A stretch of DNA of 64,000 bases from Candidatus Poseidoniaceae archaeon (GCA_938075675.1 CALJHE010000003.1:51738-115737); one strand, 5' to 3'; shown: positions 32,768 to 64,000, counted from the first letter of the stretch. The notes: generated from the letters alone by a model not told the origin. Made by a program: numbers and translations.

Positions 32768-32941
32768 GTCGTTTTGGCACTTACTTTTTACCGTTTAAAT
32801 CGACATCCGAAACAGCGCTCAATGTGATGCAGCAAGGCATTCATCTGTTGTCCTTTCAGCGGAGTCATTAAAAGAGGCTCTAAAGTGGCGAAGACGCTTC
32901 AGCCTTGCTGCTGTCGCGCAAACACCTTTGAGGGAAAAAAT

Positions 32942-38900: not shown

Positions 38901-41900
38901 CCTATGCAATTGCAACCTACGTCAATGGTAGTATTCGTGCTCCTGACGGCGGTTTGTTCTCCGCTGAATACACCTATGCTGACTGGGCTGCTCAAGAGGC
39001 AGTTTACAAGTTTGAACAAAGCCAACCAGCATCAGGTCTTGAAGTCAATTTCGTTGCCAACGACCTCGCCTTTTCAACAACCGTTGAAACGGATGGAAAT
39101 TTCAGCATGCGCCTGCCAAGTGGAAACACCTTCCACATGACAACACTTAGCCTTGTTTCCCAGATGTCTTCTGGTCAACTTGTGGTTTTGAGCGGAGATG
39201 CAGAGATGGATATCGGACTCATGTACCTCGAGCCGACCGTCGCAACGATGGGTCTTGTCTACCTCTACGACAACACTTCGCTCTGGGATGGACTCGCACC
39301 AGGATATGCTGCACAAGAAGTCGTGGCAACTGATTCAACCGGACTTGAGTGGAGAACAACCATTGACGACCAAGGTGGCTTTGCATTCGACCTCCAACCA
39401 GGCGACTGGGATTTCACAGTTGATGAAGAACTGCTCAATTCGACGACTGTAACGGACTACGCAATCCTCGATAACGAAGGAATTGCTCCGAACTCTGTTG
39501 AATTGTTTGTCAGTCCGGAACCGTTGACTATTGAACTCAATATCTTCATGGACTCTGGAGGAGATGGTATCTTCGCAAACGGAACTGCTGTGACTCCAGC
39601 GTTCTCGTTGATTCCACTCAATAACCACGGACAACAGTACAACTTTACTTCGAATGACTACACTGCAGCTGGGAACATTTCCGTTGTCTTAGAGCCGGGA
39701 CTGTACAGTATCGATTTCAACGAAACCGCAGCCGACGATGAGAACGCAACGGATTACAACCTACTCGGCGATTCAACCTTTGAGACAATGATTGTTGGAA
39801 TTGAAGCATATGAAGACGCTGTTTCGTTTGCTCTACGCAATGAATACCTTGTAACCGGACAACTTTCAAACTCGTCCGGTGACGGTGTCGAAAAGCAATT
39901 CTTGCTCCGAAACGATGCTGACGACTTGTGGCACAACATCGCATCTGACGTGAATGGAAGTTTTGCCTCCTACGTCCCTGCGGGCGATTGGGTGGCTATT
40001 GTCGCACCGTTCTCTGCGTCCAATGAATCCATGGAAACCTACCGTGAGGCGTTCACAGTCAGCGAAGACTCTTCTTTGCGTACTGGATTGAACTTTACTT
40101 CCATCGAAGTGGTCACATTGAACTTCCAAGTACAGGAATTGAACACCGACTCGAACATGAGCGATGTCCGTATCACGCTTGTGAGTCATGACGGATTTGG
40201 AAACATTACGCTTTCGAAGTCGGACCAATTTGGTAATGTTAGCGAAACCATCATGCCCGGTACTTGGAGCATGTTCCTGAATCAAACAGAACCTCAGCGC
40301 CAATGGAGTCTCGACACATTCGATGCTCCTTTCTCCACTGACAACGCTGTTGATGGTGTTCTCGAACTTGGCATTGTTTCACCTGAACTCATGGTTGAAA
40401 TCGGCGGTAAAGTCTTCTGGGACCTTAACGACGACGATCTTCCTGGTGGTACAGAGGGTATTGCCAACACCACGGTAAGTATTACTGGCTTGAACAACAC
40501 TGAGATTGATACCAATGTCACAACCGATGAATTCGGTGTTTGGTCATTGCTTGTACCGATTCAAGACGAGTACCAAGTTTCAGTTTCGAAGGAAGGATTC
40601 AGTACTGAAGTCTACAATGTGTCGAATACCAGTGCTTACCCCGTCTATGCAGTCCCTGAATCATATGATATCGAGATGACAGCAGGAAACGTTACTGTTT
40701 CTGGGAACGTCACTGACATCAATGACGCTGAGCGACTGAATGGCTCGATCGTTACATTGTACCCGAGTACTGGTATGGTCGGAGAGACAATTGTTGTTGA
40801 ATCTCAATTTAATAACGATGAACTCACTTGGTCTGCAGTCATTTCACCTGGTGAATGGATTGTTGTTGTTACCGAAGCAAACCCTGGCGAAAACGGCGGT
40901 GGAGTTGCAATTGGTCTTCTTGACGCTAGCATCTCCGAAGGCGCAACTCTTGACCTCGAAATGTCACTTGGTGGTTGGCTCGACCTTTCCACCTCTTGGA
41001 CCGACATCAAACTCGATGAATATCACGCTGGTTCATCCAGTAATGGCTCGATTTACATGAACGAGACTGCAGTTGTGACCATGACCATCGGTGACGACTT
41101 GGAATGGGACTTGCCGGTTGGAGAGGATGGGACAATCAGCGTCCTCATGCCAGCATCTGAGATTGAGATGGACTCTTCTTTCACCACGATTCAGCATGAC
41201 TTGCAACTTGAGATGGAATACATCGGCGGTGCAGTAACACTCGTCGCTGAAGGTCGCTCACCAGTTTCTTTGTCGTACACACGAAGCATCAACTCTGATA
41301 CCTCGATTAGTATGGTTGAAGGAAGTGTAACTGGTGCAACCGTTGATTCTGAGCTGGCATTTACTGCGATTGAAGAAGGAGAGGGATACCAGCAGATTGA
41401 ATTCGAACTTCAGTTGAATTACGAAGGAACGGAAACTGTTCAAGTCTTCGATGTCCTTGGACAAATTCTTGTTGCTCCTGATGAAGCTGACTGGACGATT
41501 GAGTTCAAGAACGGTTCGAGCTATGAGGATTCATACGAAGTCTCCCTTGGAATCGGAAACAGTACCGACGATACAACTGTTCAGTCCTCGGCAACAGTTG
41601 GTGTCCGAATCACTGTAGCCAATCAATCATCGGCTTGGCATCTTGAAGACCCTCACACACTGAAGGTTCGTATGCTAACTGATAGCACTCCATCAAGTGA
41701 AATCTCAGTTACCGTTCAAGTGCCTCAAATCTACGGATTGGAAACTTCTGAAGAAGACGAATCCGTCGGTATTGGTGCAGGCGGAAGCAGTATGTTTGGG
41801 TTTGTACTTGAGAACACTGGCAACGGTGACGACTCTTACACCATTGAACTCTCAGATAATATCCCGGAAGGCTGGGAAGTAACTCCGATGAGTTCGGTGA

Positions 41901-46900: not shown

Positions 46901-48369
46901 ATTTCCGCATCTGGGCATCTGACAGTGATTTCTGCAACACGAAATCCAGCTGGGCTGATTGTGAACACGAAACTCGAACCATCAACATCAATACCGATAA
47001 CGCAATTCCTTTCGTTCAACTTAGTGAACCACTGAACTCTGACATTCTTCGAGCCAGTGACACTCAACTTATCCAGGGTGTCGCATTGGATAACGATGGG
47101 CTGGTGACTCGTGTCGAGATTTCAATCTTTGACCTAGCAAGCGGTACCACTGTAAACAACGGTCCGAATCCTGTGACAAACTTTGCTCCGAACGGTGCAT
47201 GGTACACAACTTGGGACACATCCGACCTTATCCATGACCAACAATATGAACTGGTCATCAAAGCATGGGACGGAAAGGACTTTTCGAATGAGGAGCGAAT
47301 CCGTATCACAATCGACAATCCAAGTGACGCAAACAATCTCGTTCCTGAATTCAACTCAACGGGTTGGTCGAGTACCATCACTCTGTTCTGTGACTCAAAC
47401 CCGACCAAACTCGACCGTTGCAACGGTGGAATCAGCGTCGACTTGATGGATTACTTTTCGGATCCTGATGGTGTCGAAGATGGTAAAACCGATGGGTTGA
47501 ACTTCGACATCTTTGACGATCCGACCAACTTGGATGATGATTTCTACGGTGATTACCTTACACTTTCCGATAAGGGAGTTGTCAGTTATAACCCCGCATT
47601 CGTCACTGGTCTCTCCAACGATGTTTCCGAATGGTCTCTCGTAGGGCTTATGTTTGTTGCTCGTGACGCATACGATTCAGTTGCCTACTCCTACAAGGTC
47701 AACGTCGTAGTCGTCGAAGTCTCATTCAGTGTCGTTCGTGACAACTCTGGACCTCTTGGGCCTGACTCTCCTGCATATTTCAGCGGCCAAGGTTTGCCGA
47801 ACAGTCTGGTTGAGGCTCGTTTCGACAGTCTCAAGGGCGTTCGTATTAACCAAACCCGCGTCAATGCAGATGCAACATGGACAATGGAAATTTCAAGCAG
47901 TCAACTTTCGGGCATGGAAGGGACAAGCAACATTATCTTCGAGATGGATGACCAAGTCTATTCAGTCCCTGGCGAGAACACAAACGCTCTCTTCCAACTC
48001 AGTGTTGGTGATGGTTCGGAATCCAATTCGAACGTTTGGATGATTGTCGGTGCTGTATTCGGAATCATTGTACTGTTAGGTGCTGGTATGTTCTTCTTCC
48101 AAGTCGAGTATGATGACATGGATGAACTTACTGAAATGGCACAAGCTGAACAAGAGGCTGCAACAGCAGACCCTTACGCATGGGCTAAGGCTCGACAAGA
48201 GCCAGTGGGCATTCCTGCTGCCGCCGTTGCAACGACTCCGGTCGCTGCTCAAACTGTGGCTGCTGCTGTTCAACCTGCAGCCCCACAGGCATCTCAACAT
48301 CCAGGATGGATTTGGGACTCGGAGTCCAACAACTGGGTTCCTGATCCAAACTACACTCCCGACCAGTGA
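43972..48369 (+). CDS. secreted right-handed beta-helix (PbH1-repeat) surface protein, tail-anchored
   Basis: Signal peptide. Parallel beta-helix repeats (NNTIQDTAKEAVLIGE, NNQISNNTGIC, DNTVTNNGGDGMRI; about 44700-45450). Downstream Ig-like regions. TM helix VWMIVGAVFGIIVLLGAGMFFF. About 100-aa Ala/Pro-rich cytoplasmic tail. Confidence 0.6.
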   Translation: MSILKNTTSHKSISLVALLLLSTLTGLIAIPTASAVNETKSGIITGTETWTGTMNLNGDVVVAEGAKLVVNAGTVINIPYGYYIDVEGAICIGDSACGASSGSSGNQARFIWSTPTDYTIQGRCYSNSTSNPNYNSDTACGSGMIIRSTIDQAITSLKYAHFENAYGHPFETNQVSGMQYGALVFDGSTTSAQGLSFDNINTSNVMAIDLAAPSISDSTFTLGVDGNGYDAAAVRAYGAGAGILATMEVSNSVFTGDTAAECGNDGRSLIYVESSYVDFSNLEIKDNSYGFFMKESSGSITDSDVNVKCSGIDTNSHKVTGTINHTLVINDNTITTADGSGITAYDGAIVVAERNIISGAASGSGFGIRSSTVTANNNVIGPIGGWNGLWIYGTSDVVAENNTIQDTAKEAVLIGEYHYLDQGWNVPTPTAARLYLANNQISNNTGICNSQMYGGDFQCPAIHMFMSSATLYDNTVTNNGGDGMRIKASIVNAQRNTIEVSGFAANISLFDDNYGNKYGSIAYFSENTYTNATQVYNITESRVTVQSEFIPDAGGNEIYPVQMSWLGPECPYVLDECLQVPPTSIMPPAFMPLALEVVENSTVFSYANLQNFDSSKIHVQNQNSAWGSQVREGELVRYQVKAQNSNVVDATVIIRDASGLPLYTLTTDAFGFTPEVSLPSDFLLDRNWNHNVGETNVQIPGVLDSEGNPVFIDENSCADGYDNDGDTKVDSEDGDCTGGRELPFYTVEAYKFGKGQKDFNFVLSGAIDDVINLVNLKPSVTVTQNDGYSFATTATLTGGAWDGISGPYALDQIAYDSQFGVVKRVEIQPPGSTDWYNAVDTSGANGMVTKSTHPFKTWSFEWDLSAHPEGEGDVTFRVRSYDGLDYSPVEVRKYKLNLVAPTTLVNSPADGSSHTNGKVTFTGTSSDPYSGTWGSDIKSIWFDINGPNGYTANFDVSGSTAWAYDWIFQELQTGQYDFRIWASDSDFCNTKSSWADCEHETRTININTDNAIPFVQLSEPLNSDILRASDTQLIQGVALDNDGLVTRVEISIFDLASGTTVNNGPNPVTNFAPNGAWYTTWDTSDLIHDQQYELVIKAWDGKDFSNEERIRITIDNPSDANNLVPEFNSTGWSSTITLFCDSNPTKLDRCNGGISVDLMDYFSDPDGVEDGKTDGLNFDIFDDPTNLDDDFYGDYLTLSDKGVVSYNPAFVTGLSNDVSEWSLVGLMFVARDAYDSVAYSYKVNVVVVEVSFSVVRDNSGPLGPDSPAYFSGQGLPNSLVEARFDSLKGVRINQTRVNADATWTMEISSSQLSGMEGTSNIIFEMDDQVYSVPGENTNALFQLSVGDGSESNSNVWMIVGAVFGIIVLLGAGMFFFQVEYDDMDELTEMAQAEQEAATADPYAWAKARQEPVGIPAAAVATTPVAAQTVAAAVQPAAPQASQHPGWIWDSESNNWVPDPNYTPDQ

Positions 48370-48428
48370 AGCATCTTCTGCTCACAGGAGCGGAAGTGTT
48401 GAAGAGTAGAAAAACGCGAGGTGAGAAT

Positions 48429-50954
48429 ATGTCTGTTCAACCAAAGCCAGGTGTGCAAGAAAGAATACTTCTGCACCTTCTTGATTATTCAGATTTTAAG
48501 AACAGTGTCGAAGTTCCTTTTGCTCTCTCCCAAATGGGGATTGCTAACGCAGTAGCGATTGCTCGATCGAACGTGCCTCGGGCAATTGCTGGACTCAAAG
48601 ACCAAGGTTTGCTTATCGAACGCCAAGCACACGTCACCGGCGTTTCTCGTAAGCGTAAAGCGTACTTTCTCACAGACCCAGGCATGAATGTCTCAGAAGA
48701 CACCTGGGAAAGGCTTCGTCATTTCCAACTTCGCAGTATAATGGACGATGGAGCGATTATCAATTCCACTCTTGGGGAAATCAACGACCATCTGGAATTT
48801 TCTATGCGGCCGGTGGACATTATTCGTTACATGGATGACAACTGCGTTTTGGATACTCGGATTCTCTCAGCAGACTTGGTGGAGCGTGACTTATCCAAAC
48901 ATGTGGAAAAGCAGTTGGTGACCGCGCTTGGAGATTTACCTCGATTACGGCACTTTTACGGTAGGGAAAAAGAACTCGACAATATGGCGAATTTGATTGA
49001 CGCCCGAGCTACAACACTGCTTATCCCGGGTATTGCAGGTATTGGAAAAACGACAATCGCTTCCAAGTTGATTGAGCGGTTTATGCATCGCCGGAATCTG
49101 TTGTATCACAGATGCCAGGATTGGGAAGGTTCTCGCTCGTTCTTCGAGTCGATTGCGGATTGGTTGGCTAACATAGGTGACTCAACCTTTGCAGATTACC
49201 TTGCTGCCACACCGGTACCACAACCTGCTGACGCTGCACGTCTCTTGGTTGACTCACTCGAGGGGACTCCAAGCTTGATTGTCATCGATGATTTCCACAA
49301 AGTTGCAGACACAACCCTCCACCAGACTTTCCAAGCCATGTCATTGGCTCTGCTTGGTAGTGAAGAGGAAATTGGTCTCGTGATATTCTCCCGTTCGTTC
49401 AAGCCCGTTGTCCCAACGAAGGATGCTGAAGGGCGTATTGCGAGTTTGGTTTTACCTCTCGATGGTCTTGATTCAGATGCTGGCCGTCAATTACTCACGA
49501 GTTTTGATAACCTGGGTGATGAGCAATGGCTTCACATTCACGGCTTATCGCGTGGCCATCCACTCGTTCTTGAGTTGATTAATCGGGGCGCTTCTGCAGG
49601 CGCTTTCCACGAAACCTTGGAAAATTACGTCACCGTGGAAATCTTCTCAAAGTTGAGCGCAGAGCAGAAACGAGTTTTGTCTGCTCTGGCAATTTATCGA
49701 GAACCAGTGATTCTGTCTGCACTTGCAGAACAAGGACTTGACACCGACGAACTTGATTCTCTTGTTGAACAAGGATTAGCCCGTCAGGGTGATGTTGATT
49801 TTTACGATGTTCACGATTTAATACGAGAGTTCTTGGTTCGTAGTCTCGATGAAAGTACTAAACAAGAATTCCATGCGAAGTGCTGCAACTGGTATGAAAA
49901 GCAGACTTCTGCACCTGCAATTTTGATTGAGCACATTTACCACCTCATCCGTTCCGGAAAGGGAGAAGAGGCGGCGGTTCTCATTGCAGAGCAAGGCCGT
50001 AATTTGATTGCGCAAGGTCACATGGAACTTCTTGGTTTGATGGAAGGCTTGACTATGGAAGACCTTGATAATCCTATACGCATGCGTGTACGTCAATTAC
50101 ACGGTGAATTGTTGGTTCTTCTTGGGCGGTTTTCAGAAGCAGAGACCGTTTTTGTATCCATCTCTCAACTGGACCCTCAATCGAAAGCGGTTCGGTTGAA
50201 TGCTGAAGTTCACTCCGCTCTCGCTGATCTTGCGCTCAAGCAGGGTGATGCAGACAAAGCACTTGCCATGCACCGGGAAGCATTGGAGAAGTTCATTGAA
50301 TGTGGAGATGCAAAAGGAGCAGCCCGATCATACAGCAACATGGGATACCTACTGCGCCGTAAAAATGATGTCTCGAAGGCTCTTGAAGCGTATGGGGAAG
50401 TTGAGAAAATCCTCAGTGAATCAGATGGAGTCGAACTGATCGGAACCCAACTGACCCTTGCTCGTGCTTTCCTTGAATTGAATGAGATTGACCGAGCACG
50501 AGACCATGCGCTCCAAGCCTTTGAAGTTTCAGACGATGGAAGTGATGTACTGCTTCATGCACGTGCACAAGCCGTACTTGGTCGATACTACGCAAAGGTT
50601 GGTGATGCAGATGTTGCTTCACACCACTACACTACGGCCCTGGAGACGATGAGCGTTGCAGGAGATTTGCTTTCACTGGTGGAAATTACTATTCTTCTTG
50701 GAGAAGTCCTACAAGATGCAGGGCGAGCAGAAGATGCGATGGAGCACTATCGTGAGGCCCTTGTTATTGCCGAGGCTAACGATCTGCGTATGCAAATTGG
50801 AGAACTACTTTCCCGTCTTGGTGGTGTTGCCCCTGATAAGCGTCGAAGAATGGAATATTTGCAAAGAGCCCTTGCGGTATTCCGCGAACTTGGTGCAAAG
50901 TCAAGGATGCGTGATGTCCAAGCCCAAGTCCATGCAGCAGTCATGGGTCGCTGA
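48429..50954 (+). CDS. STAND NTPase regulator: N-terminal winged HTH + NB-ARC-type ATPase + C-terminal TPR repeats
   Basis: wHTH (ERILLHLLDY...VPRAIAGLKDQGLL). Walker A GIAGIGKTT at about 49027-49055. Walker B LIVIDDFH. GHPLVLEL (GxP) motif. At least 8 TPR-like repeats. ATG at 48429 avoids overlap with the upstream gene. Confidence 0.6.
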   Translation: MSVQPKPGVQERILLHLLDYSDFKNSVEVPFALSQMGIANAVAIARSNVPRAIAGLKDQGLLIERQAHVTGVSRKRKAYFLTDPGMNVSEDTWERLRHFQLRSIMDDGAIINSTLGEINDHLEFSMRPVDIIRYMDDNCVLDTRILSADLVERDLSKHVEKQLVTALGDLPRLRHFYGREKELDNMANLIDARATTLLIPGIAGIGKTTIASKLIERFMHRRNLLYHRCQDWEGSRSFFESIADWLANIGDSTFADYLAATPVPQPADAARLLVDSLEGTPSLIVIDDFHKVADTTLHQTFQAMSLALLGSEEEIGLVIFSRSFKPVVPTKDAEGRIASLVLPLDGLDSDAGRQLLTSFDNLGDEQWLHIHGLSRGHPLVLELINRGASAGAFHETLENYVTVEIFSKLSAEQKRVLSALAIYREPVILSALAEQGLDTDELDSLVEQGLARQGDVDFYDVHDLIREFLVRSLDESTKQEFHAKCCNWYEKQTSAPAILIEHIYHLIRSGKGEEAAVLIAEQGRNLIAQGHMELLGLMEGLTMEDLDNPIRMRVRQLHGELLVLLGRFSEAETVFVSISQLDPQSKAVRLNAEVHSALADLALKQGDADKALAMHREALEKFIECGDAKGAARSYSNMGYLLRRKNDVSKALEAYGEVEKILSESDGVELIGTQLTLARAFLELNEIDRARDHALQAFEVSDDGSDVLLHARAQAVLGRYYAKVGDADVASHHYTTALETMSVAGDLLSLVEITILLGEVLQDAGRAEDAMEHYREALVIAEANDLRMQIGELLSRLGGVAPDKRRRMEYLQRALAVFRELGAKSRMRDVQAQVHAAVMGR

Positions 50955-50955
50955 A

Positions 50956-51432
50956 TTATTCGTACGATTGCGGTCGGTCGTACTGCAATGATGTGACGCC
51001 GTCTGAGTGAACAACCCAAACCGAAGTTACTCCCGCCAATACGATGGTTCCTTCGTGGGATCCCGCACCTGTTCCTGATAGGGACACACTGGTGTCAAGT
51101 GTCCCTCCGTCGTGAATCAGTTCAATCGAGGTGTCGGTGAGTTGCAAAGTAATTCTTGCTTCATCCGCCTCGGTTAATCTCCATGTTACCTTTTCGGCGT
51201 ACTCGACTGCACCCATGCGGCTTGCTTCGTCAGCCCGTTCGACTGCCGCTGCCAAATCATCAAGATTTGATTGAATTGCATTTTCGTTCCACCGTTCTCG
51301 GGTTGCAGTTTCTATTTGGTATGCCCAAATACTGAATGTTGTAAGCAACAGCACTCCGAGTAGGAACGTGAATATGTAGCCAAGTTCAGTTGCTGCAGCA
51401 TGCTCATCTCTGCGAAGTTGATTTCTGTTCAT
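50956..51432 (-). CDS. small protein with archaeal class-III (pilin-like) N-terminus
   Basis: ATG at 51432 overlaps the stop of the upstream gene (ATGA). N-terminus MNRNQLRRDEHAAATELGYIFTFLLGVLLL. Confidence 0.45.
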   Translation of the reverse strand: MNRNQLRRDEHAAATELGYIFTFLLGVLLLTTFSIWAYQIETATRERWNENAIQSNLDDLAAAVERADEASRMGAVEYAEKVTWRLTEADEARITLQLTDTSIELIHDGGTLDTSVSLSGTGAGSHEGTIVLAGVTSVWVVHSDGVTSLQYDRPQSYE

Positions 51433-53639
51433 GAGACCGCCTCCGTCATATGAGCATTGAGTGCCGCCATTTGAAGCGTAAATTGTATTGGTTCTCCATT
51501 GGTGTGCCAAACGGCTTCTGATGTGCCATACGAGGGGTCGGGAACCCATCCGACATAATCGGTGAGTAAGTCGATACGTCCTGGATAAATGGTCCAGTCT
51601 TCACTTGCTTCAAGACCGTCTGCAGATGATTCTGCAATGGCTACTCCGTACGGTTTCGACCAACCCCTTCTGACCTCGTAGGCTGTGGCTGAGGCCAAAG
51701 ATGAACGGTCAACAAGTTCAATGTCGAGATTCATTTTTCCTGCACCACTTACGCTGTCTGCAGTCGGGTGAAGCGATGGAATCGTAGCGGCAAATCGTGG
51801 CCCAGGTCCTCCACGGTCCGACGGTGAAACGACAATGTAGGGTTCAAATTCCGGATGGTTCGTGACTACAGCACCACCTGCATAGGCCACTTCCATCCCA
51901 ACGATTGAGGATTGGAACTCATAACTTAGTCTGGAAAGGTGGAAACCCCATACTGTCCCGAGTGTGGCATGACTTGATGCTCCGTTTTCGCCAATCAGAC
52001 TAATCTGCATACTTGCAGGGTGTGTTCCAGCCCTCCATGCATTCTGAAGGTCAACTTGGCTTCTTCCGCTCATTGATTGCCAAGGGAGTGCAGAACTGAT
52101 CCATCCACTTGCTTGAACATTAATCGGTAAGCAACGTTGGGCACCATCATGCATAGCTTGGAGTAAACCTTCTTGGCCTCGAATAGAATATACGCGCAAT
52201 GAATCCCCGTCGCTCACATTGATTTGGGTTATGCCTTGTTCGAGTTCAACCGTTTTGTGATTCACATTCTCGAGGAATGTGCCGTTTGCAACGGTGCTAC
52301 CGGTCATGTTCCATTCTGTGTAGTATCCAGCATGGGTCATGTGGAGTCTATGAACTCCTGATTGACTGTTGTGGAATGTGTGTAATTGTCCAGAAAGTGC
52401 TCCGGTATCATCTGCTGGTTCGACTTGCAGTCCTGAGCCGCTTGAATTCTTTCTCCATGTGACGAAGATGTCGCCGTTTGCATCTAGCATTGGCGCTCCA
52501 TCGATATCGGCAGGAGGCCATGGGAAGGATGTACTTTGGTTTGCTGCAACTGAGAGCCCACCGCCTCTCCACGTGACTGTCACGCTGTCAGTGCTGGGGT
52601 TGGAGAACACGAGTTCTCCCTCGAGTGAAGGGCTGATGAAGGAGTGGCCGAGATATTGACCATCGGTACTGGGTAACGCCATCTGGCCAGTCGTCGAGTT
52701 CGTGTTGGTTTGCAGAATCAGTCTTGATGGTGAACTGGTCGAGATGTGGACCACTTCTGGCGAGGATGTGCTCAATTGGTGATTGAAGTCAACTCCTACT
52801 CGGTTTTGGTTGGATGGTAAGGCATAGAATGTGTTCGTAGTATCGTTTTGAATCGTAATTTGGTTTGCTGTTTCACTGAGAATCTGGATTTGATTCTCAC
52901 CGGCAGGTAGAGGAATCGACCATGAGCTTCCTGTCGAATCGACAGGGTTTGGGTCGTTGGATTGCATCACTGTCGTCCCTCCACTGCCGACCGAGAGAAG
53001 TAGGTGCAATTGGTGAGAGGAGTGAATGGTTGTTTCACCAAGTTCACTCATGTCCAGAACACGCATGCCATCGACCATCAATTTCAGTTCCGACAATGTT
53101 TCGCTGCCATCCATGACTTCCACATCGATCGGTCCGAGCGGAAGGGCAAGCCCTGGAGATGCTGTAAGAAGGACCTCATCGACCCACTCGGGGATTGTGA
53201 ACATGTACGGGTTCGCAGGACCGAGTCTCAAGTCATCGATACAAACTGCTGTATTCATCGATTCAGGGTGACGTATTCGTAGTTCATCGTCGTAGTCAAG
53301 TGCGCCTTGGACACGGAACGAGGTGTCGTCGGCCCAAGTCGCCGAATACCACATACTGCTCTGCATCATGTTCCAGTTGAGCGTTCCGTCAACCGGTATC
53401 AGGCTAATCTCTGTAGAGTCGCCAGGCATTCCTGTTTCACTCAATGCAGCAGTTTGGTGTGCCAGCAGAGTCATTTGAGCCGACATGTCGTGACGTTCTA
53501 TCGAGCCTTCGAGCTCTTCGATAACAGGTATCATGGATACCATCATCATGGCGATAATCGACAGTACGCCACCGAACAGGAGTACCGTTGCGACGGCTGC
53601 TGACACCGCACTTTCATCTCGCTGGAGCATGGATTTCAT
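51429..53639 (-). CDS. large (736 aa) protein with archaeal class-III (pilin-like) N-terminus
   Basis: N-terminus MKSMLQRDESAVSAAVATVLLFGGVLSII. Start overlaps the upstream stop in ATGA. Remainder is an extracellular beta-rich domain. Confidence 0.5.
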   Translation of the reverse strand: MKSMLQRDESAVSAAVATVLLFGGVLSIIAMMMVSMIPVIEELEGSIERHDMSAQMTLLAHQTAALSETGMPGDSTEISLIPVDGTLNWNMMQSSMWYSATWADDTSFRVQGALDYDDELRIRHPESMNTAVCIDDLRLGPANPYMFTIPEWVDEVLLTASPGLALPLGPIDVEVMDGSETLSELKLMVDGMRVLDMSELGETTIHSSHQLHLLLSVGSGGTTVMQSNDPNPVDSTGSSWSIPLPAGENQIQILSETANQITIQNDTTNTFYALPSNQNRVGVDFNHQLSTSSPEVVHISTSSPSRLILQTNTNSTTGQMALPSTDGQYLGHSFISPSLEGELVFSNPSTDSVTVTWRGGGLSVAANQSTSFPWPPADIDGAPMLDANGDIFVTWRKNSSGSGLQVEPADDTGALSGQLHTFHNSQSGVHRLHMTHAGYYTEWNMTGSTVANGTFLENVNHKTVELEQGITQINVSDGDSLRVYSIRGQEGLLQAMHDGAQRCLPINVQASGWISSALPWQSMSGRSQVDLQNAWRAGTHPASMQISLIGENGASSHATLGTVWGFHLSRLSYEFQSSIVGMEVAYAGGAVVTNHPEFEPYIVVSPSDRGGPGPRFAATIPSLHPTADSVSGAGKMNLDIELVDRSSLASATAYEVRRGWSKPYGVAIAESSADGLEASEDWTIYPGRIDLLTDYVGWVPDPSYGTSEAVWHTNGEPIQFTLQMAALNAHMTEAVS

Positions 53640-54721
53640 CGTGAAACCTCCACACGCTTAACATCGACTTCGAGAATAAGTTGATTTTCTTGCGATTCGA
53701 CAGTGAATCCATCGGCACCACTTGCTCGAAGATACGGTGCGTATCCAGTAAATGTGTCCAGTGTTCCGGACGCCCTGTTCAGCGTATGTTCTTCCAGCAT
53801 CTTGTCGTGGTATTGCGGTGTGATGACATCATTAAGCGCATTTTCAACAGTGAATTGGAGGTGGTATGCATTGCCAGTAAACAGCGTCATAGGACCAAGC
53901 GAAACCATGTTCATGCCGATTTTTTCCCCTGAGCCTATTGAGCCGTTAATGATGACATCTGTGAGAACAATCGACAAACGCAACTCACCAGTAACCAGCG
54001 TGTCGAGTTCGATGTTGGGGAATTGGGATACCTTCCAAGGTTCATTCGGGAATCTTTCAGCTCGAGCGTCATTCACCAAAGCAATTTCATGTTCCCCTAG
54101 TCCGAGTGAGGTTGAAATTTGAATGCCGGATACGATGTACGAAACGCTCGTGTGCAGAGCACGTTCGTCAGCGTCGAACACAGTGACAGTCATCCAGTGG
54201 TCTTGAGAGGACTGATGTTCGATCACAACTTCATTGAATGAACCACTGAATGCATGGGATTCGATACCCAGTGGGCTTTCGATTGATACGCTTCGAGCAG
54301 TTTCATTGATGGCTGTAATGCCAATTGCTGAGTTGTTGATGTTACGAACAGTAATTCGCTCATCTGGAGTTAAATCTGCAGCAATCGTCCAAGTTTCAAC
54401 TTTGATGACCGGTTGAACCATTGTCGACTTGAGTGCCAATGTATGTCGGATGCCTGTGCCTTCTGGTGCGCTTCCAGCCACATCGATTCTGTCTTCAAAA
54501 CGGTCAGCAATTCCGTTCGCACTGTTCCAGTTTGTGTTGTCTTCGAAATCAGAAATGTAGGGGCTGAGGAAAATCCACACCCCTCCCATGATTGTGACGA
54601 CCATAGCCAGCATCATCACGACCCCGAGAACCTCGCTGACAGCCCTTTGGTCTCGGCGAAGAGACGGGCGAAGTACAGAGGGGTGGTGTGCGTTCACAGA
54701 CAGCACAACCTTTGGTATCAT
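53636..54721 (-). CDS. protein with archaeal type IV pilin-like N-terminal domain (DUF1628-like)
   Basis: N-terminus ...LRRDQRAVSEVLGVVMMLAMVVTIMGGVW closely matches the archaeal pilin consensus (RAVSEVIGVILMVAITVIL). 361 aa. Confidence 0.55.
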   Translation of the reverse strand: MIPKVVLSVNAHHPSVLRPSLRRDQRAVSEVLGVVMMLAMVVTIMGGVWIFLSPYISDFEDNTNWNSANGIADRFEDRIDVAGSAPEGTGIRHTLALKSTMVQPVIKVETWTIAADLTPDERITVRNINNSAIGITAINETARSVSIESPLGIESHAFSGSFNEVVIEHQSSQDHWMTVTVFDADERALHTSVSYIVSGIQISTSLGLGEHEIALVNDARAERFPNEPWKVSQFPNIELDTLVTGELRLSIVLTDVIINGSIGSGEKIGMNMVSLGPMTLFTGNAYHLQFTVENALNDVITPQYHDKMLEEHTLNRASGTLDTFTGYAPYLRASGADGFTVESQENQLILEVDVKRVEVSR

Positions 54722-54738
54722 TTAGCCATTGACCTTGA

Positions 54739-54758
54739 CACCCCCCCGTAGGGGGGTG
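54739..54758. promoter_or_regulatory. G/C-rich hairpin CACCCCCC-CGTA-GGGGGGTG between the MBL hydrolase gene and the pilin-like operon
   Basis: Perfect 8-bp inverted repeat with a 4-nt loop, read directly from the sequence. Confidence 0.4.
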
Positions 54759-54768
54759 ATTTGGATGA

Positions 54769-55680
54769 TTAGTGCTTCTTCGGCTGGATGTCCGATGCGT
54801 TGGGTTGTTCCTCCGTTCGGCCGATATAGTGGGAGTTTTCGGGGCCATCTTGGAGTGATATTGTGATGTCCCCACTAAACACTTCGTCGATGTGATACAA
54901 AACTGTGGATTCAGCTAAGTGTGGTTGATTGTTCTTTTCTGAAAGGTGAGTCAAGGAAATACTGCGTGTGGCCGGTGTACAAACTTGTGCCAAGAATTGG
55001 CCGGTTTGGTCGTTGGATAAGTGACCTCCTCGTCCACTGATGCGGTCTTTCAGCGAGAACGGATACGGTCCGTTCATCAAACGGTTGTGGTCGTAGTTTG
55101 CTTCAATTGCTATGTGCTCACATCCTCGAACATGAGTGATTAATTCATCCGTCCAAGAACCCAAATCTGTGATGACTGCTGCCCTTTGTCCGTTGTGGCT
55201 GGCAACAAAGGCGACATTATCTGCTCCCGAATGAGGTACTGGCACAGGTAGGATCGAAAGGTCGTCACTGACTTGAATCAAATCCAGCGAGTCAAAATAA
55301 TGTGTTAATTCTGTTTGTAGGCCCAACTCTTCTGCGGTTCGATGGTTTGCTTGAACTTTCATCTTCCAACGTTTTTGGGCGACCAGTGCGCCACCACCAT
55401 GGTCTCCGTGATGGTGACTAACGAAGATGTAATCAATTTCAGTTGGATGGATGTTGAGTCGAGCAAGTCGTTTCTCTAATTGTGCTCCACTGAATCCTTG
55501 ATCGATGAGAACTTTCGCCTGTTCGGTCTCAAGCAAAGTAGCGTTTCCGCGACTGCCTGTTCCGAGGTGGGTCAGTACCATTGTCATCTCAATCGTGTCT
55601 ACTGGTCGCGAGAGGCCTTTGAAGACACCGCCTTTTCCGTTTGAATTGTCGCCCTTTCCGGTGTATCTCACTTCTTCCAT
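54769..55680 (-). CDS. MBL-fold metallo-hydrolase
   Basis: HHHGDH metal-binding motif. A likely true start is the internal ATG at about 55587 (MTMVLTHLGTGS). A G/C-rich hairpin separates it from the downstream pilin-like gene. Confidence 0.6.
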   Translation of the reverse strand: MEEVRYTGKGDNSNGKGGVFKGLSRPVDTIEMTMVLTHLGTGSRGNATLLETEQAKVLIDQGFSGAQLEKRLARLNIHPTEIDYIFVSHHHGDHGGGALVAQKRWKMKVQANHRTAEELGLQTELTHYFDSLDLIQVSDDLSILPVPVPHSGADNVAFVASHNGQRAAVITDLGSWTDELITHVRGCEHIAIEANYDHNRLMNGPYPFSLKDRISGRGGHLSNDQTGQFLAQVCTPATRSISLTHLSEKNNQPHLAESTVLYHIDEVFSGDITISLQDGPENSHYIGRTEEQPNASDIQPKKH

Positions 55681-55820
55681 GGGGCGGATTAGGGTGTTTA
55701 TTCGAGTTCATTTCAGGGTCGATTATTTCGGCTCTGTCCGAACATCGCTCCATCATCCTCATAAGTGTCTTGAGAAGCATGTTAACTTGCGAAGCGTATG
55801 CTTTGTAGGCTGGTCTCCAA

Positions 55821-58800
55821 ATGCGACGAAGTATAACCACTCTTCTAACAACCCTTGCTGTTGTGGCAAGTTTGCTTTTCATGTCCCAATTTCCGGCTGT
55901 TTCATCGGTGTCGAATCTTCACCCAGATACGACGGATGGTTCTAAACCGCCGACGACGGACACCGATGGGGATAAAATTCCAGATGTTCACGAAAACCTA
56001 TTCTCAGAATGGATGAATTGGACCGCAGTGGACGGACGTGCGGTCGTTATAGAAGGCATGGACAGCAATGACGCATCGGACGCTTTGATTGATTCGGATA
56101 TGGATGGGTTGAATGCGACAGAGGAATATTGCTGGCCATATCCTGCCAACTGTACAGCCCCAGGTTTCCCACGTGGATTAACAGGTACAGTGGACGATGA
56201 AGGTGAACGTTCGTATCTTGACCCCCGTATTGCAGACACCGATGGTGATGGGATGCCAGATGGTTATGAAGCCTACATGTGTGAACGTGTTGGCGGATAC
56301 AATGTCTTCTCGTTCAAGTACGAATGCAATACATTTGATCCACTCAATGCTTCTGATTTGTATGATGATCCGGACGAGGACGGTTTTGATGTTAATCGGG
56401 ACGGAGTTTTATCCACGACGGAACGATTTTCCTCACCGGAAGAATACATTTACGGTGCTCCAGATAACCATACGAATGAGCTCGACGGCCTTTGGTGCTC
56501 TGCAACATTACCCGAAGGTTCTGTGTTTGAAAATTGGCCGTTCATCCCGACTGGTGCAAACGCTACATTCCAAAACATTCTCTCAGCATGCACCGAGAAT
56601 GCTACTATGGTTATCGACGAAGATATCTGGCTTGGGACCGACCCACTACTTGCTGACTCTGACCGCTATCATTGGGATGGATATTCCATTCGCCGTTTAT
56701 TCCCGTCATTTGGTGACGGTATTCCCGACGGCTGGGAAGTCCACTTTGGCCTCGAGCCATTGAACAGAACCAACGCTTTACTTGACCCAGACAACGATGG
56801 ATGGGATGCAAACCGTGACGGTGGCGTATCTCCGGATGTTAGCCGCACCCTCACTGCCCTTGCTCTCGGTGAATCACTTTCGACACTTGAGGAGTATTAT
56901 GTCCATGATGACAATGGCAATTCAGTTCTTCCAGGCATGAAAACAGCCCTTCTCGGGACTCAAGATGACAGCGTTGAATATGTGCCGCTGAGTTTTAATT
57001 CGCCATCAGATGAGATGAGTCTCATCCATTATGATTTACGCGACATGGATGCAGACAGTACAACGGTCTATGCAACAACGCGCTACGGTTTGACCGTCTT
57101 TGATTACGACGAGATGTTAAGCTCTGACCATTGGATGCCAGAAGGCATTGAATTGCATTCGTCCTTGCTACTTGCTCAAGATGGCCAAAACTTCGCTTTA
57201 GCCATCGCCTCCAGTGCTGGCCTTGCTGTGGCGCCTCTACAAGCAGACGGAGACTTGGGCCCATTGAATACGTGGTCTTGGTCTCTTTCCGAGGAACTTT
57301 TTGCGCTCACAGTACTCGCCATTGACGGTCAAAACACTCACGTTCTTGGTTTGGGTGATGCCGGTGAAGGTTCGGTATTCGAGATTTCATCTTCTGCTGA
57401 AATTGCAGACCAATTTGCGATTTCTCCCGATTTAGAAACTGCGCTGCGACAATCAAACGCTTCAGTTACGCATTTAGCTCACGGCCCTGCAGGTGGAGGT
57501 GCAAACATGCTCTTTGTCGGTACTGACCGTGGATTACTGTCCGGTGAGACAACCACTGCCCGTGATGAGTTCGAAGCCAACTGGAGGTTTTTCTATACCC
57601 CGGAAACGACACCATTCCCTACTGCAATCGATGAGCTGCGTTCGCTTTCGCTTGGCATGGTTGCGAACCCTGCTGAAGTTCGAACCATGATTCTCGATGG
57701 TCCGAATGCTGCAAATGCACAGGTCCTATGGTTCGGGACACCATCAGGTGTTCACATGCTGAACTTGGTGGATAACTCAATCTCCCATAGTGGTCTATTG
57801 GAACACCCTGGTGTTGAAGGACGATATGTTCGCGAGTACAACAACATCCACTCACTGCACACAACCGGTGACGAAGTGTTGGTTGGCTCAGTCAAAGGAA
57901 TGTGGGCAATCTCCGGTGATTATTCTGCAGTCTATGGATTCCAAGAGCAAGAAACCATCTACGGTGAAATAGTGACCATTCAATCGTTGCTCATCGACGG
58001 GAACACCACCGTATTGACCGGTTCATCCCCTGGGCAATATGCTAATCTTGAACTCATCAACCCGGGTGCAAATGACTCCGATAACGATGGAATGCCTGAC
58101 GGCTGGGAAGTCGCAAACGGTTTAGATCCAACCGATCCTTGGGATTCACTGTTCGATGCGGACAGCGACGGCCTCGACCTCGATCAAGCAGACGATGGAT
58201 TCCTTGAGAGACTGTGGACGAACCTTGACGAATACAGATTTGTATCTAACTCCCTGAACGGGTATAATTCAACAAATCCGAAGGTCGGCGACACCGATGG
58301 TGATGGCTTAGGTGATGGAAGCGAATATTTCGGTTTCTTCTATGAGACCTCTAACCTGTGGTGTCACTATACTGTCCAAATGGAATACGTCTGTGGTGAT
58401 GCGGCGGGATTGGCAGCAAACGATACCTATCTTGCCTTGTCAAGCAGCGATCGAGGTACCGACCCGACAAACTTCGATAGTGATGGCGACGGAATGCCTG
58501 ATGGATGGGAAATTGAACATCGCAGGTGGATTGGTTCTTCGTTCAACGGAGGCAACAATTGGACACTTGACCCGAACCGTGCAGATGATGCAAATTGGGA
58601 TGCTGATCGAGATGGACTCGCAAACTTGTGTGAGTACCAATGGTCTGTAGTCCGCAATGCTGCAGTTGATGGACTGTTGTTCGAATCACATGGCGAGTCT
58701 GTCAATTCAAGCATGGAATGGTTTGATGCAGATCCAAACAACATCGATTCTGACGGAGATTCATTGCCAGATGGTTGGGAATCAGGGGGCTCGTGCACAT

Positions 58801-61574: not shown

Positions 61575-61640
61575 ACGAAGTCTCACCCGTAGGGGTATAA
61601 TTCAAAGGCCATAGCGCCTGTGGTTGCACGGGGAGCAGAT

Positions 61641-64000
61641 ATGCAAAACGAAATTTCCAGTGGGCGCGGCATTATGTTCGTACTTTTTTTCATCATGGTC
61701 CTGTCTCCAATGGGCCCTTTGGCGGAAGTTTTCGTTGGTTCAGCAGATGCTGCAGGTGTATCTCGCCACGTCTATGAGTTCAGTGACGGTTCGACAGAAC
61801 ACGTTGCATTGTATCAAGGTGCGAATCCTGATATTGGGGCTGAAATCTCTTTGCCCAAAGGGGCACTCGTCACTGAAGTTTCAATGACACTTTCTGGAGC
61901 GTCTGCGACAGGATGGAGCCAATCAGTTACCGATGACCGTGATGAATGGTTTGCTGGTAGCGCCTCTTCAACCGACTCGCGAAGCGGCGATTTGAGCCTT
62001 GAGTTGGCAAACAGTTCTTCGAACTTCTTCGCACACGGATACGATGAAACTACAAATCCAACTTCTGATGCATGGCTGGACAACGGCTCATATGCTGTTC
62101 GGCAACCTCACACCTCCAACTCGACAGAAAGCAGATTTTCTCAGCAAGTCCTCAAGTCCTCGAATGCAATGATGAAACAAAGTCAGGGTGCAGTACTCAA
62201 GCATCACGACTGGTTGTTCATGTCAACTTGGAGTTCCTCAACGTTCCAAAACATTGTTCACAGACTCTATCCTAACAATGCTACGAAAGAATCGGTCATT
62301 ACATTGGACCAAGCCCAATGCACTCTTCCAAATCTACACTCATCCTCATACTATGCAAACTATGGATTCCGAGATTGGACGATTACCGATGATGAGCGTA
62401 TGTTTGCCATATTGTCAGGATACAAATACCACTATTCATCTTCAGCACCGACGCAGTACCATCGCGTTTTAGAAATGGATATCTCAAGGGATGATGTTTG
62501 GACCTGTATAGACTCTTATGATGTGTCTCCGCAGTATTCTGACTATACTGCAATTGCATACGATCGCACGACGGAAGATGTTTGGATTGTACACAACGCA
62601 CAGCGAAGGATTGTTCCTTACACATTCGGTGAAACTCCTGATGGGACATACACTCGTGGAGATGACATGTATTCGTATTCATCCACATCTGGTAGCTCTT
62701 GGGAGTGTGGCAAGACTGGACAACAAGTTCGCGGGTTGGAAGTGAACGAAACGACGTTCTTCATGCGTTGTCAAAAAGGCTCAACGAGCCAAGACAAGGA
62801 CCAACTGGAAGCATGGACCATCTCTGGATCCTCAACTTCTCTGGTTCCTCAGTCCGGAACACGCCTCCTTTCAGCACTCGGTTATGGATTGCAATTTGAT
62901 GGTTCACGGTTTGTCACAATTGATTGTGGCTACTCGACCTGGTCGTCCTCGACGCTTTACTATCGTGAATATGGCACTGGATGGCAATTCAAGACCACGC
63001 CTGCGCCTGGCACTACCACTTGGCTTGGTCCGATGATGAAATCCAGTGAACCAGTACTTGCTGCAAACATGCAGACCTACTGGTCGGCAGCATCGATTGG
63101 TGACCGTGTTGATTACTGGATTTCTGCCGATAACGGCACGCATTGGGAACCAGTAACATCCAATTCGACGATTCACTTTGATTATCCCGGTACGGAATTG
63201 ATTTGGAAAGCACAACTCATTGGTTCAACAGCAGTTTCATGGTGGGTTGATGTCGAATCTGCCACAGAATATGCCACCTCTGGCAGTTGGACTTCACCGC
63301 CACAGGTCACGGGTACCAAGGTCGGTAAGGTTCGCCCCAACTGGCAAGCAGATGTTCCAGCAGGGACTTCTGTTCTTGTACAAGTTTCAAACGATAACGG
63401 TTCATCTTGGTTGCCTGCCCTTAACAATCAAGAAGTCAGTTTCCCATCTACCGAAGCAGGCGATACCATTCGCTACGCAATCAGTATGACCTCATCCGAC
63501 GCTTCCCTGACTCCGCTCATTGATTCAGTAACGATGGAGTACGAAGAGGGCTATCCCGATCGACCCAAGATTGATATCGGCAACGACCTTATTTGGGATT
63601 GGGAATCGGTTCTCTTCCTCAACGAATCATCCGTTATTGCCAGTGATATGTCCATCGTTAATGCTGAAGTCAAGTCGCAACCTACACTTGTTCAGGCGTT
63701 TAATTCATTTATTCCTCAGAACGGTGACGGTGATGTCACCATTCCGATAGCCATTAAGGCAGCAACACCAGGACGTGTGAAAATCTCCAATATTGATGTT
63801 ACATACAAGTTACAGACGAGGGCGGTAGATGCCTCACTCGAAGGTGGAATGATTTCCCCAGATGGAGTTTTCAGAAATTTGCATGTTCGGGTTGCGCCCG
63901 GGGATGATGTCGACCGTGTGACAAGTGCACTTGTGGCACTTGACAATTCATACGGTGAAAACCCTGAATTTGAATGGGAACGTGGTGACACATGTTCAGT
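61641..64000 (+). CDS. secreted hypothetical surface protein, partial (continues beyond window end)
   Basis: I translated this frame myself from ATG 61641 (MQNEISSGRGIMFVLFFIMVLSPMG...). There is no stop codon through position 64000. It is not in the ORF track because it is unterminated. A TATA-like GTATAATT lies about 35 nt upstream. Confidence 0.5.
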   Translation, partial: MQNEISSGRGIMFVLFFIMVLSPMGPLAEVFVGSADAAGVSRHVYEFSDGSTEHVALYQGANPDIGAEISLPKGALVTEVSMTLSGASATGWSQSVTDDRDEWFAGSASSTDSRSGDLSLELANSSSNFFAHGYDETTNPTSDAWLDNGSYAVRQPHTSNSTESRFSQQVLKSSNAMMKQSQGAVLKHHDWLFMSTWSSSTFQNIVHRLYPNNATKESVITLDQAQCTLPNLHSSSYYANYGFRDWTITDDERMFAILSGYKYHYSSSAPTQYHRVLEMDISRDDVWTCIDSYDVSPQYSDYTAIAYDRTTEDVWIVHNAQRRIVPYTFGETPDGTYTRGDDMYSYSSTSGSSWECGKTGQQVRGLEVNETTFFMRCQKGSTSQDKDQLEAWTISGSSTSLVPQSGTRLLSALGYGLQFDGSRFVTIDCGYSTWSSSTLYYREYGTGWQFKTTPAPGTTTWLGPMMKSSEPVLAANMQTYWSAASIGDRVDYWISADNGTHWEPVTSNSTIHFDYPGTELIWKAQLIGSTAVSWWVDVESATEYATSGSWTSPPQVTGTKVGKVRPNWQADVPAGTSVLVQVSNDNGSSWLPALNNQEVSFPSTEAGDTIRYAISMTSSDASLTPLIDSVTMEYEEGYPDRPKIDIGNDLIWDWESVLFLNESSVIASDMSIVNAEVKSQPTLVQAFNSFIPQNGDGDVTIPIAIKAATPGRVKISNIDVTYKLQTRAVDASLEGGMISPDGVFRNLHVRVAPGDDVDRVTSALVALDNSYGENPEFEWERGDTCS

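Follow-up and report, generated by a model that had tools for sequence, protein, structure and literature searches.

In euryarchaea, sets of pilin genes are often unlinked from the module that encodes the ATPase and TadC (Makarova et al. 2016, PMC4858521; PMC4371748). Here we consider a set of three pilin-like genes, A, B and C, on a 64,000-nucleotide stretch of DNA from Candidatus Poseidoniaceae archaeon (GCA_938075675.1 CALJHE010000003.1:51738-115737; the whole stretch is called the window below, and positions are counted from its first letter). The three reading frames are coupled as the preliminary description of the locus had reported: inspection of the sequence reveals ATGA stop/start overlaps both between A and B (53639-53636) and between B and C (51432-51429). 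We read their products as minor, accessory subunits of a structure akin to a type IV pilus, assembled by machinery encoded elsewhere, and assign to this reading a probability of about 0.55; assembly into a filament, a particular position within it and a role in adhesion would be further features of such proteins. The genes are as follows.

53636..54697 from a GTG (54721 if from an ATG), minus strand: gene A, 353 aa (361 aa if from ATG 54721)
51429..53639, minus strand: gene B, 736-aa modular pilin-like protein
50956..51432, minus strand: gene C, 158-aa small pilin-like protein

The trio resembles the euryarchaeal 'clade 2' loci of the PilB3/PilB4 type, in which an operon encodes several class III proteins and a variable-length, all-beta/immunoglobulin (Ig)-like family is present. 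It departs from them in being always detached from ATPase and TadC genes in Poseidoniales, and the family of A is very divergent. Among described minor pilins, those of arCOG02911 are duplication-prone, 250-550 aa long and Ig-like (PMC4858521); compared with that description, B (736 aa) lies beyond the size range owing to an insert of ~375 aa. The preliminary description had stressed that A and B are far larger than major pilins. This argument loses force, as minor pilins of variable length have already been described (PMC4858521) and large sizes are on record for euryarchaeal pilins. Similarly, the absence of machinery genes nearby is real, but it is ordinary for archaeal pilins and no peculiarity of this locus.

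Haloferax volcanii offers parallels of another kind. Its PilA1-6 proteins (DUF1628) have predicted cleavage sites of the form (D/R)A↓VS (the arrow marks the cut) and a conserved H-domain, and their genes lie apart from pilB3-pilC3, while the pilB4-pilC4 operon contains two FlaFind-positive pilins described as 'relatively large' (PMC4371748). PilA1-6 are, however, small major pilins, each of which can form a filament, whereas A and B are 2-5 times larger, have a different H-domain sequence and, together with C, are known from their genes alone. The Epd pili of Methanococcus maripaludis are likewise built from clustered pilin-like genes, and their assembly depends on every one of the five Epd pilins, the major pilin EpdE among them (PMC4371748). 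The Epd system employs the peptidase EppA and KG↓Q sites with Gln at position +1, in contrast to the PibD/FlaK-type sites of the trio (A↓V or A↓A), and it has no sequence similarity to the trio beyond the helix. EpdA, EpdB and EpdC are minor pilins, and epdE resides at another locus.

In bacteria, the GspI-J-K, FimU-PilVWX-PilY1 and Streptococcus sanguinis modular pilins are operon-encoded sets of proteins of unequal size, made in fixed ratio, with one large member carrying a grafted non-pilin module; for such minor-pilin and pseudopilin complexes, priming or capping of the filament and adhesion have been proposed. The likeness to the trio is one of mechanism only, as the bacterial tip complexes belong to another domain of life, depend on another peptidase and have no counterpart in sequence or fold: no similarity of the trio to the GspH-K, PilV/W/X or ComG families was found at either level. 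The Sulfolobus bindosome proteins BasABC are also three pilin-like proteins encoded together, and they illustrate the use of class III signal peptides for a structure that is not necessarily a long filament. The Bas genes, however, are linked to those of an ATPase and a membrane protein (BasEF) and serve sugar-binding proteins, whereas the trio has no such neighbours and homology between the two systems was not detected. Set beside these examples, the trio is an order-specific case of the known archaeal pilin sets encoded apart from their machinery, and no new kind of system.

N-terminal segments of the three proteins

The N-terminal motif L[RQ]RD[EQ]xA[VA][SA], which the preliminary description had aligned among the three proteins, has just three occurrences when the window is translated in all six frames, one each at the N-termini of A, B and C, and is absent from all 200 codon-block shuffles (0/200). 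In each protein it is followed by a hydrophobic helix. The leader of A, 19 aa long, is MNAHHPSVLRPSLRRDQRA, with a predicted site RA↓VSEVLGV (...RRDQRA↓VSEVLGVVMMLAMVVTIMGGVWIFL) and a mature start at codon 54640. The leader of B is MKSMLQRDESA, the predicted site SA↓VSAAVATV (...QRDESA↓VSAAVATVLLFGGVLSIIAMMMV) and the mature start codon 53606; for C, the corresponding leader is MNRNQLRRDEHA, with the predicted site HA↓AATELGYIFTFLLGV (...RRDEHA↓AATELGYIFTFLLGVLLLTTF) and the mature start at codon 51396. All three N-termini combine a short charged leader, Ala or Gly at position -1 and a hydrophobic stretch of ~20 residues, and lack a Sec-type c-region. Sec signals have a shorter hydrophobic core followed by the cleavage region. 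A Tat signal is unlikely because the RR pair is not conserved among homologues.

Conservation is distributed very unevenly around the predicted sites. Position -1 is occupied by Ala or Gly in all but two of 343 homologues, or 341 (106/106 for A, 117/117 for B and 118/120 for C), and the leader ahead of it varies, with a mean majority fraction of 0.43 in A, 0.69 in B and 0.53 in C (more than 100 homologues each). In each protein, conservation is highest over the 26 residues after the site (0.91-0.93, with 16-18 positions invariant). The ratio of nonsynonymous to synonymous substitution rates (dN/dS) in the helix is 0.004 for A, 0.010 for B and 0.000 for C, and the mature N-terminus of C is invariant among the homologues. 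A variable leader, a fixed Ala/Gly and a near-invariant helix are the signature of archaeal class III signal peptides, and the class III character that had been proposed for all three N-termini is borne out by the conserved position of the site. The FlaFind sites of Haloferax volcanii PilA1-6 are DAVS and RAVS (PMC4371748); RA↓VS in A, which is of the PilA4-6 type, and (E/D/S)A↓VS in B coincide with them, and the site of C, xA↓AATELGY, is less canonical at -2. Cleavage of the leaders by a prepilin peptidase of the PibD/FlaK type would be consistent with these features.

Could the helices simply be uncleaved anchors? The trio would in this case comprise N-terminally anchored surface proteins, possibly acting together with the neighbouring beta-helix, S8 and AglB-fused proteins. 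The trio does lie among at least 10 surface-protein genes that form a block and follow one another in the same order in all loci examined, fold searches returned no pilin match, and cleavage of the leader is itself a prediction. A plain membrane anchor, however, keeps its hydrophobicity and not its sequence, whereas here the helices are near-invariant and it is the segment before the invariant Ala/Gly that varies. A leader that is free to vary in front of a near-invariant helix fits removal of the leader and specific packing of the helix, and does not fit a plain anchor. The N-termini also match Pilin_N/DUF7289 models and PilA cleavage sites, and the conserved synteny extends beyond the block and so provides no argument for coupling with the neighbours. 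We consider simple anchoring improbable.

Family membership and domain architecture

The preliminary description had matched A to the DUF1628 pilin consensus. The protein from the window scores 20.9 bits against Pilin_N (PF07790, DUF1628), under the gathering score of 25.2; its orthologue P0382 passes at 28.2 bits (another orthologue, P0380, scores 24.0 bits), and B and C have no Pilin_N match in Pfam. Against DUF7289 (PF23960, gathering score 27), A scores 23.6 bits and many of its orthologues carry a precomputed match, and B reaches 30.1 bits, above the threshold, over residues 11-89 only. A profile of A built from Poseidoniales sequences only retrieved 110 clusters from 1.84 billion proteins, two of which, P0451 and P0458, were shown to lie outside Poseidoniales. 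The first, matched over ~250 positions at E=2e-8, is a true DUF7289 protein (39.1 bits); the second is matched at E=4e-6 in the same set. Alignment of A with these outside relatives reveals common ExW, NG(A/G) and Pro anchor positions beyond the helix. The sequence comparisons support A as a divergent relative of DUF7289, and place both A and B in the DUF7289/Pilin_N neighbourhood.

Among PDB sequences, the A profile best matches three archaeal pilins known from solved filament structures (8gi2, 8fj5 and 9myg), in each case across no more than the first 25 residues (E ~3e-3), and sequence-profile searches of PDB with B and C gave no match. C itself matches no Pfam family. The one matched by most C homologues is DUF7266 (PF23928), with 6 of 27 matching, at best E=0.008 and below threshold; C can be called DUF7266-like weakly, on these matches. 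Paralogy of the A, B and C ectodomains was considered and rejected: hhalign aligns only the N-terminal 34-44 columns, and the ectodomains are not detectably related.

Prediction of the ectodomain structures, which had been suggested as a check, was informative for A and for part of B. The AlphaFold2 model of A (pLDDT 87.2) consists of a 63-residue helix (22-84) and Ig-like beta-sandwich domains (90-360, in the numbering from the ATG), which is the pilin architecture of a long N-terminal helix and a beta-rich globular domain. The model of B is confident only at ~145-505, where it is composed of all-beta tandem beta-sandwiches; its N-terminal helices are of low confidence. The confident part nearly coincides with a variable middle region (~141-516) set between conserved ends (12-140 and 517-736). 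Substitution rates follow the same division, with dN/dS of 0.010 in the N-terminal, 0.068 in the middle and 0.034 in the C-terminal region. Positive selection on the middle region can be dismissed, as its dN/dS of 0.068, the highest of the protein, is still strongly purifying. The sequon N444-M-T is kept in 28 of 28 sequences, and C133 and C503 are invariant. Such a pattern would be expected of a pilin-type core with a grafted exposed module. A Foldseek comparison of the B model with PDB gave TM-scores of at most 0.14 to jelly-roll, C1q or carbohydrate-binding module (CBM)-like proteins and was uninformative.

Across all regions of A, B and C, pairwise dN/dS is 0.00-0.07. Given these values and the hundreds of homologues, the three ORFs are genuine genes, and purifying selection on them is strong.

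Pilus machinery and the proposed assembly

What links the trio to pilus machinery is a locus in a distant lineage. The distant A homologue P0458/P0535 is encoded in locus L094, and a relative with 80% identity, L096, has the same layout. Both loci encode, in succession, an A-like protein of 392 aa, its DUF7289-like paralogue of 378 aa and a DUF7266 member of 171 aa (33.1 bits), directly followed by a PilB3_N/T2SSE ATPase and two T2SSF (TadC/PilC) proteins; a pair of further small pilin-like proteins and a surface protein of 911 aa come next. The arrangement agrees with that of 'clade 2' pilus loci in euryarchaea (PMC4858521). When profiles built from Poseidoniales sequences only were searched against the 169 open reading frames (ORFs) of the L094 set, the best match of each was the positionally equivalent gene, with E=6e-14 for A (over ~210 columns), 0.014 for B and 0.021 for C. 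Local motifs are also held in common (DEFEDTNQYNS versus SDFEDNTNWNS, and E(I/L)GYI(Y/F)). We infer from this correspondence that the trio is the Poseidoniales version of a DUF7289/DUF7289/DUF7266 pilin set. A search for further machinery-linked loci with P0535 returned one relative with identical layout, L096; a scan with P0451 and a tblastn search of plasmids with the same protein returned nothing.

The PilB3-type ATPase of these loci (L094 12906-15173; L096 12623-14848) has a Lys/Gly-rich low-complexity N-terminal extension of ~170 aa. An MBL-fold gene lies immediately upstream of the distant A-like gene (L094 8844-9629, minus strand; L096 8239-9096, minus strand), as one does in the window, but on the opposite strand and of another subfamily (Lactamase_B_3), with a BLASTP E=0.01 to the window protein; this recurrence may be a coincidence.

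The following course of events can be proposed for the Poseidoniales trio. One tricistronic mRNA would be transcribed from a promoter resembling a B recognition element (BRE) and TATA box ~27 nt upstream of the GTG of A, and B and C would be translated through GGAGG sites and stop/start overlaps, yielding the three proteins in fixed proportion. The precursors would be inserted into the membrane and cut after Ala/Gly by a PibD/FlaK-type peptidase, at RA↓VSE, SA↓VSA and HA↓AAT. The near-invariant mature helices would then pack together and into a type IV pilus-like filament, assembled by an ATPase of the PilB/FlaI type and a platform protein of the TadC/FlaJ type, both encoded elsewhere, and probably built around a small DUF1628 PilA-like major pilin. 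A, with its Ig-like domains, and the small C might constitute the pilin core, and B, with its tandem beta-sandwich module of ~375 aa, would be the likely binding or adhesive subunit. The preliminary description had proposed either an adhesive tip complex of minor-pilin-like proteins or surface proteins with a pilin signal, served by distant machinery. This gains partial support from the N-termini, the families, the fold of A and the L094 locus; a tip position and an adhesive function would be further steps.

Published genome surveys suggest where such machinery could be found. All metagenome-assembled genomes (MAGs) of marine group IIa (MGIIa) are reported to contain flaB/H/I/J together with additional flaJ, flaI and tadC genes (PMC6864105), and fla operons are reported for all MGIIa and for about half of the MGIIb genera (PMC6461757). 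Archaellins require a prepilin peptidase; the fla operons of all MGIIa therefore imply one. The seventh most abundant MG-II transcription start site in Red Sea mdRNA-Seq data belongs to a DUF1628/COG3430 pilin-like gene, GI 663535065 (PMC5069720), which would be either the missing major pilin or a homologue of A.

Several observations weigh against the minor-pilin reading. The preliminary description had seen no ATPase or platform gene within 10 kb, and this extends to the whole 64 kb: Pfam detects no T2SSE/FlaI, T2SSF/TadC/FlaJ or Peptidase_A24 match among window ORFs of at least 150 aa lying between the partial ORFs at the 5' and 3' ends. Nor was a major pilin seen in the 64 kb, and relaxed scans of the window for more class III-like N-termini yielded no small major-pilin candidate. 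The machinery link comes from one lineage only, since L094 and L096 are related, and what relates B and C to the L094 genes is confined to similarity at the N-terminus and a shared gene order. Outside residues 145-505 the model of B cannot be relied on, C has no Pfam match above threshold (the gathering score of DUF7266 is 27.6 bits), and position -2 in many C homologues is not K/R/D/E, with S or H common. The trio seems to be order-wide, whereas archaellum genes are reported for only half of the MGIIb genera (PMC6461757). Finally, cleavage, incorporation into a filament and adhesion are all deduced from sequence.

The lack of a major pilin in the operon, and of small pilin-like ORFs elsewhere in the window, would be accounted for if the trio formed a short, membrane-proximal stalk, cleaved by the peptidase and comparable to a pseudopilus or bindosome, in which the module of B captures peptides or glycans. 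B exceeds filament subunits in size by far and its tandem domains are CBM/jelly-roll-like, conservation of the trio spans an order whose known lifestyle is proteolytic and heterotrophic (PMC6461757), and class III signal peptides are used by non-pilus proteins in Sulfolobus (PMC4371748). L094, however, has the layout of a full pilus locus, with the ATPase, two TadC proteins and five pilin-like genes, and A, B and C match no solute-binding-protein family and are not linked to any transporter gene. A stalk of this kind is, in our estimate, unlikely, if worth keeping in view.

Proteins with class III N-termini in genomes that encode archaella might also be accessories of the archaellum, as minor archaellins or as FlaF/FlaG-like parts of a stator or anchor serving the MGIIa fla operon. 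Fla operons do occur in MGIIa genomes (PMC6461757, PMC6864105), some homologues of A bear the JGI labels 'flagellin-like protein' or 'FlaG/FlaF family flagellin', and A itself has a weak, sub-threshold match to TIGR02537 that is confined to the N-terminus (15.5 bits versus 20, E=0.009). Beyond the common N-terminal helix, however, no archaellin or FlaF/FlaG domain was found in A, B or C. The trio is never beside fla genes in ~90 loci, and none are found in the window; its L094 counterpart adjoins a PilB3-type ATPase and TadC, and not a fla operon. Moreover, the trio appears order-wide, whereas half of the MGIIb genera are without fla genes. An archaellar role is very hard to reconcile with these observations. 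Together, the conservation pattern of the helices and the L094 context make the competing explanations less likely than the minor-pilin reading.

Locus structure, distribution and significance

The remaining features of the locus, in addition to the three genes, are listed below.

54715..54736, minus strand: promoter-like element AAGGTCAATGGCTAAATGATAC, 22 nt, conserved, read as BRE and TATA box
53646..53651, minus strand: Shine-Dalgarno sequence of B, GGAGGT, 6 nt ahead of the B ATG and within the 3' end of A
51440..51444, minus strand: Shine-Dalgarno sequence of C, GGAGG, 7 nt ahead of the C ATG
54769..55587 (ORF open up to 55680), minus strand: MBL-fold hydrolase, ~272 aa, cytoplasmic, Pfam Lactamase_B_2 and Lactamase_B
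48366..50954, plus strand: STAND-type regulator (HTH, AAA_16 NTPase, TPR), convergent with C

Where does gene A begin? The element is nearly invariant, with 1.5-2.0 bits per position in 78 distinct sequences against ~0.3-0.4 in its flanks, and the remaining intergenic sequence around it is unconserved. The T of its TAAATG is at 54724, 27 nt upstream of GTG 54697, and in every motif-bearing locus a GTG or ATG in frame with A is found 27-28 nt downstream of this T. ATG 54721, from which a 361-aa protein had been predicted in the preliminary description, lies inside the element; its equivalent is out of frame with A in 14 related genomes, which belong to several clades, and 2 genomes have an in-frame stop codon downstream of it. 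The displaced or interrupted ATG and the constant spacing of 27-28 nt indicate GTG 54697 as the start, and A is probably a protein of 353 aa with a 19-aa leader. The gene as such stands, and the 361-aa start and length are probably wrong. Database entries for homologues of A are mostly of 361 aa, beginning at the ATG within TAAATG, and others are of 326 aa, beginning inside the hydrophobic helix; both readings appear to be gene-calling errors.

The position of AAGGTCAATGGCTAAATGATAC suggests a BRE/TATA promoter, in which case the A-B-C transcript is predicted to be leaderless or nearly so. A/T-rich boxes at about -22 to -32 from the start codon also precede several further genes in the window. 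Archaeal operons usually begin with a leaderless gene, and their internal genes are led by Shine-Dalgarno sequences. In the trio, a GGAGG-like core is found 6-7 nt 5' of the B start in 77 of 84 loci and of the C start in 71 of 79. A search of 48000-57000 for known RNA families found none.

The MBL-fold gene lies directly upstream of A, as had been described, and keeps this position in 84 loci; its orthologues are 271 aa long. Because A has its own promoter-like element, between the two genes, the MBL gene is probably a separate transcription unit and not a member of the operon. Its inclusion in the operon, for instance as a ComEC-like nuclease, was accordingly rejected: besides the intervening element, the protein is cytoplasmic and generic. 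Between the MBL stop codon and the element there is a perfect GC hairpin, CCCCCC-TAC-GGGGGG(G) (54741-54756, minus strand), which only the closer relatives retain, with loops that differ in sequence; it could be a terminator or stabiliser of the MBL transcript, or be without function.

On the other side, C converges on the STAND gene, their stop codons (50956 and 50954) being 1 nt apart, in agreement with the earlier account. The STAND gene is the best-conserved of the block, with ~63-98% identity in loci from species genomes versus 47-97% for A, and its position is kept in 86 loci. It is a candidate controller of the surface-gene block. Read from its GTG, it overlaps by GTGA the stop codon of an upstream gene for a 1465-aa beta-helix protein.

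A, B and C have hundreds of homologues; those that bear a name belong to Poseidoniales/Poseidoniaceae, and the DNA is accordingly that of an MGIIa archaeon. In a pattern scan of one genome per species, relatives of B were found in 186 genomes, and all 80 loci listed are of Poseidoniales, including the closed MG-II chromosome CM001443.1. A contig titled 'Verrucomicrobiales bacterium' (L050, NZEQ01000036.1) contains a complete Poseidoniales block with 57-74% identity and is evidently a mis-binned MAG contig. In every locus with enough flanking sequence, down to ~30% identity of A, the gene order is constant: a giant TSP3 gene (-), MBL (+), A, B and C (+), STAND (-), the 1465-aa beta-helix gene (-), an S8 peptidase (-) and an STT3/AglB-fused giant (-). 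Gene order was considered as proof of coupling between the trio and the STAND, beta-helix, S8 and AglB genes and was set aside: synteny runs past the block, and gene order alone is therefore no evidence of functional coupling. Beyond the nine-gene block, for example, a large secreted protein that runs off the 3' end of the window (61638-64000, plus strand) is syntenic in 59 loci.

The scanned ORFs of the window are otherwise metabolic (glycine cleavage, purine synthesis, CarS and others) or encode very large secreted proteins. In a 3207-aa ORF (32885-42508, plus strand), an STT3/AglB oligosaccharyltransferase domain (418-688) is joined to over 2500 aa of beta-sandwich sequence of the CarboxypepD_reg-like kind; every Poseidoniales locus examined has this gene next to those for the S8 peptidase, the beta-helix protein and the STAND regulator. 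A 1630-aa protein (16670-21562, minus strand) has six lamin-tail and two phospholipase-D-like domains and a TSP3 repeat, which by domain content is an unusual secreted architecture of predicted nuclease- or phospholipase-like type.

The analysis corrects a widely propagated database gene start, from 361 to 353 aa, and puts two functionally uncharacterised Pfam families, DUF7289 and DUF7266, right next to genes for PilB and TadC. The exact predicted cleavage sites can be searched for in metaproteomes, and the predicted promoter and start can be checked in metatranscriptomes. In the literature searched there is no mention of DUF7289, nor of pilins or a prepilin peptidase of Poseidoniales.

Among the planktonic archaea of surface oceans, those of marine group II (MGII) are the most abundant, and no member of the group is known in culture. 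So far, archaella and thrombospondin-like proteins have been credited with attaching these archaea to particles and algae. One may speculate that the trio is the core of a Poseidoniales-specific organelle, a pilus-like fibre or stalk whose ligand-binding end is formed by the 725-residue B. Such an organelle would occur in all MGII lineages, even those that lack archaella; it would then be the real basis of attachment to particles and phytoplankton, wired through the very strongly conserved 22-nt element to the convergent STAND/HTH regulator within an order-wide envelope block that includes the AglB-fused giant. We regard this extended scenario as doubtful. Irrespective of it, an order-wide and strongly constrained trio with a large modular member provides a concrete candidate for an adhesion apparatus in these archaea.

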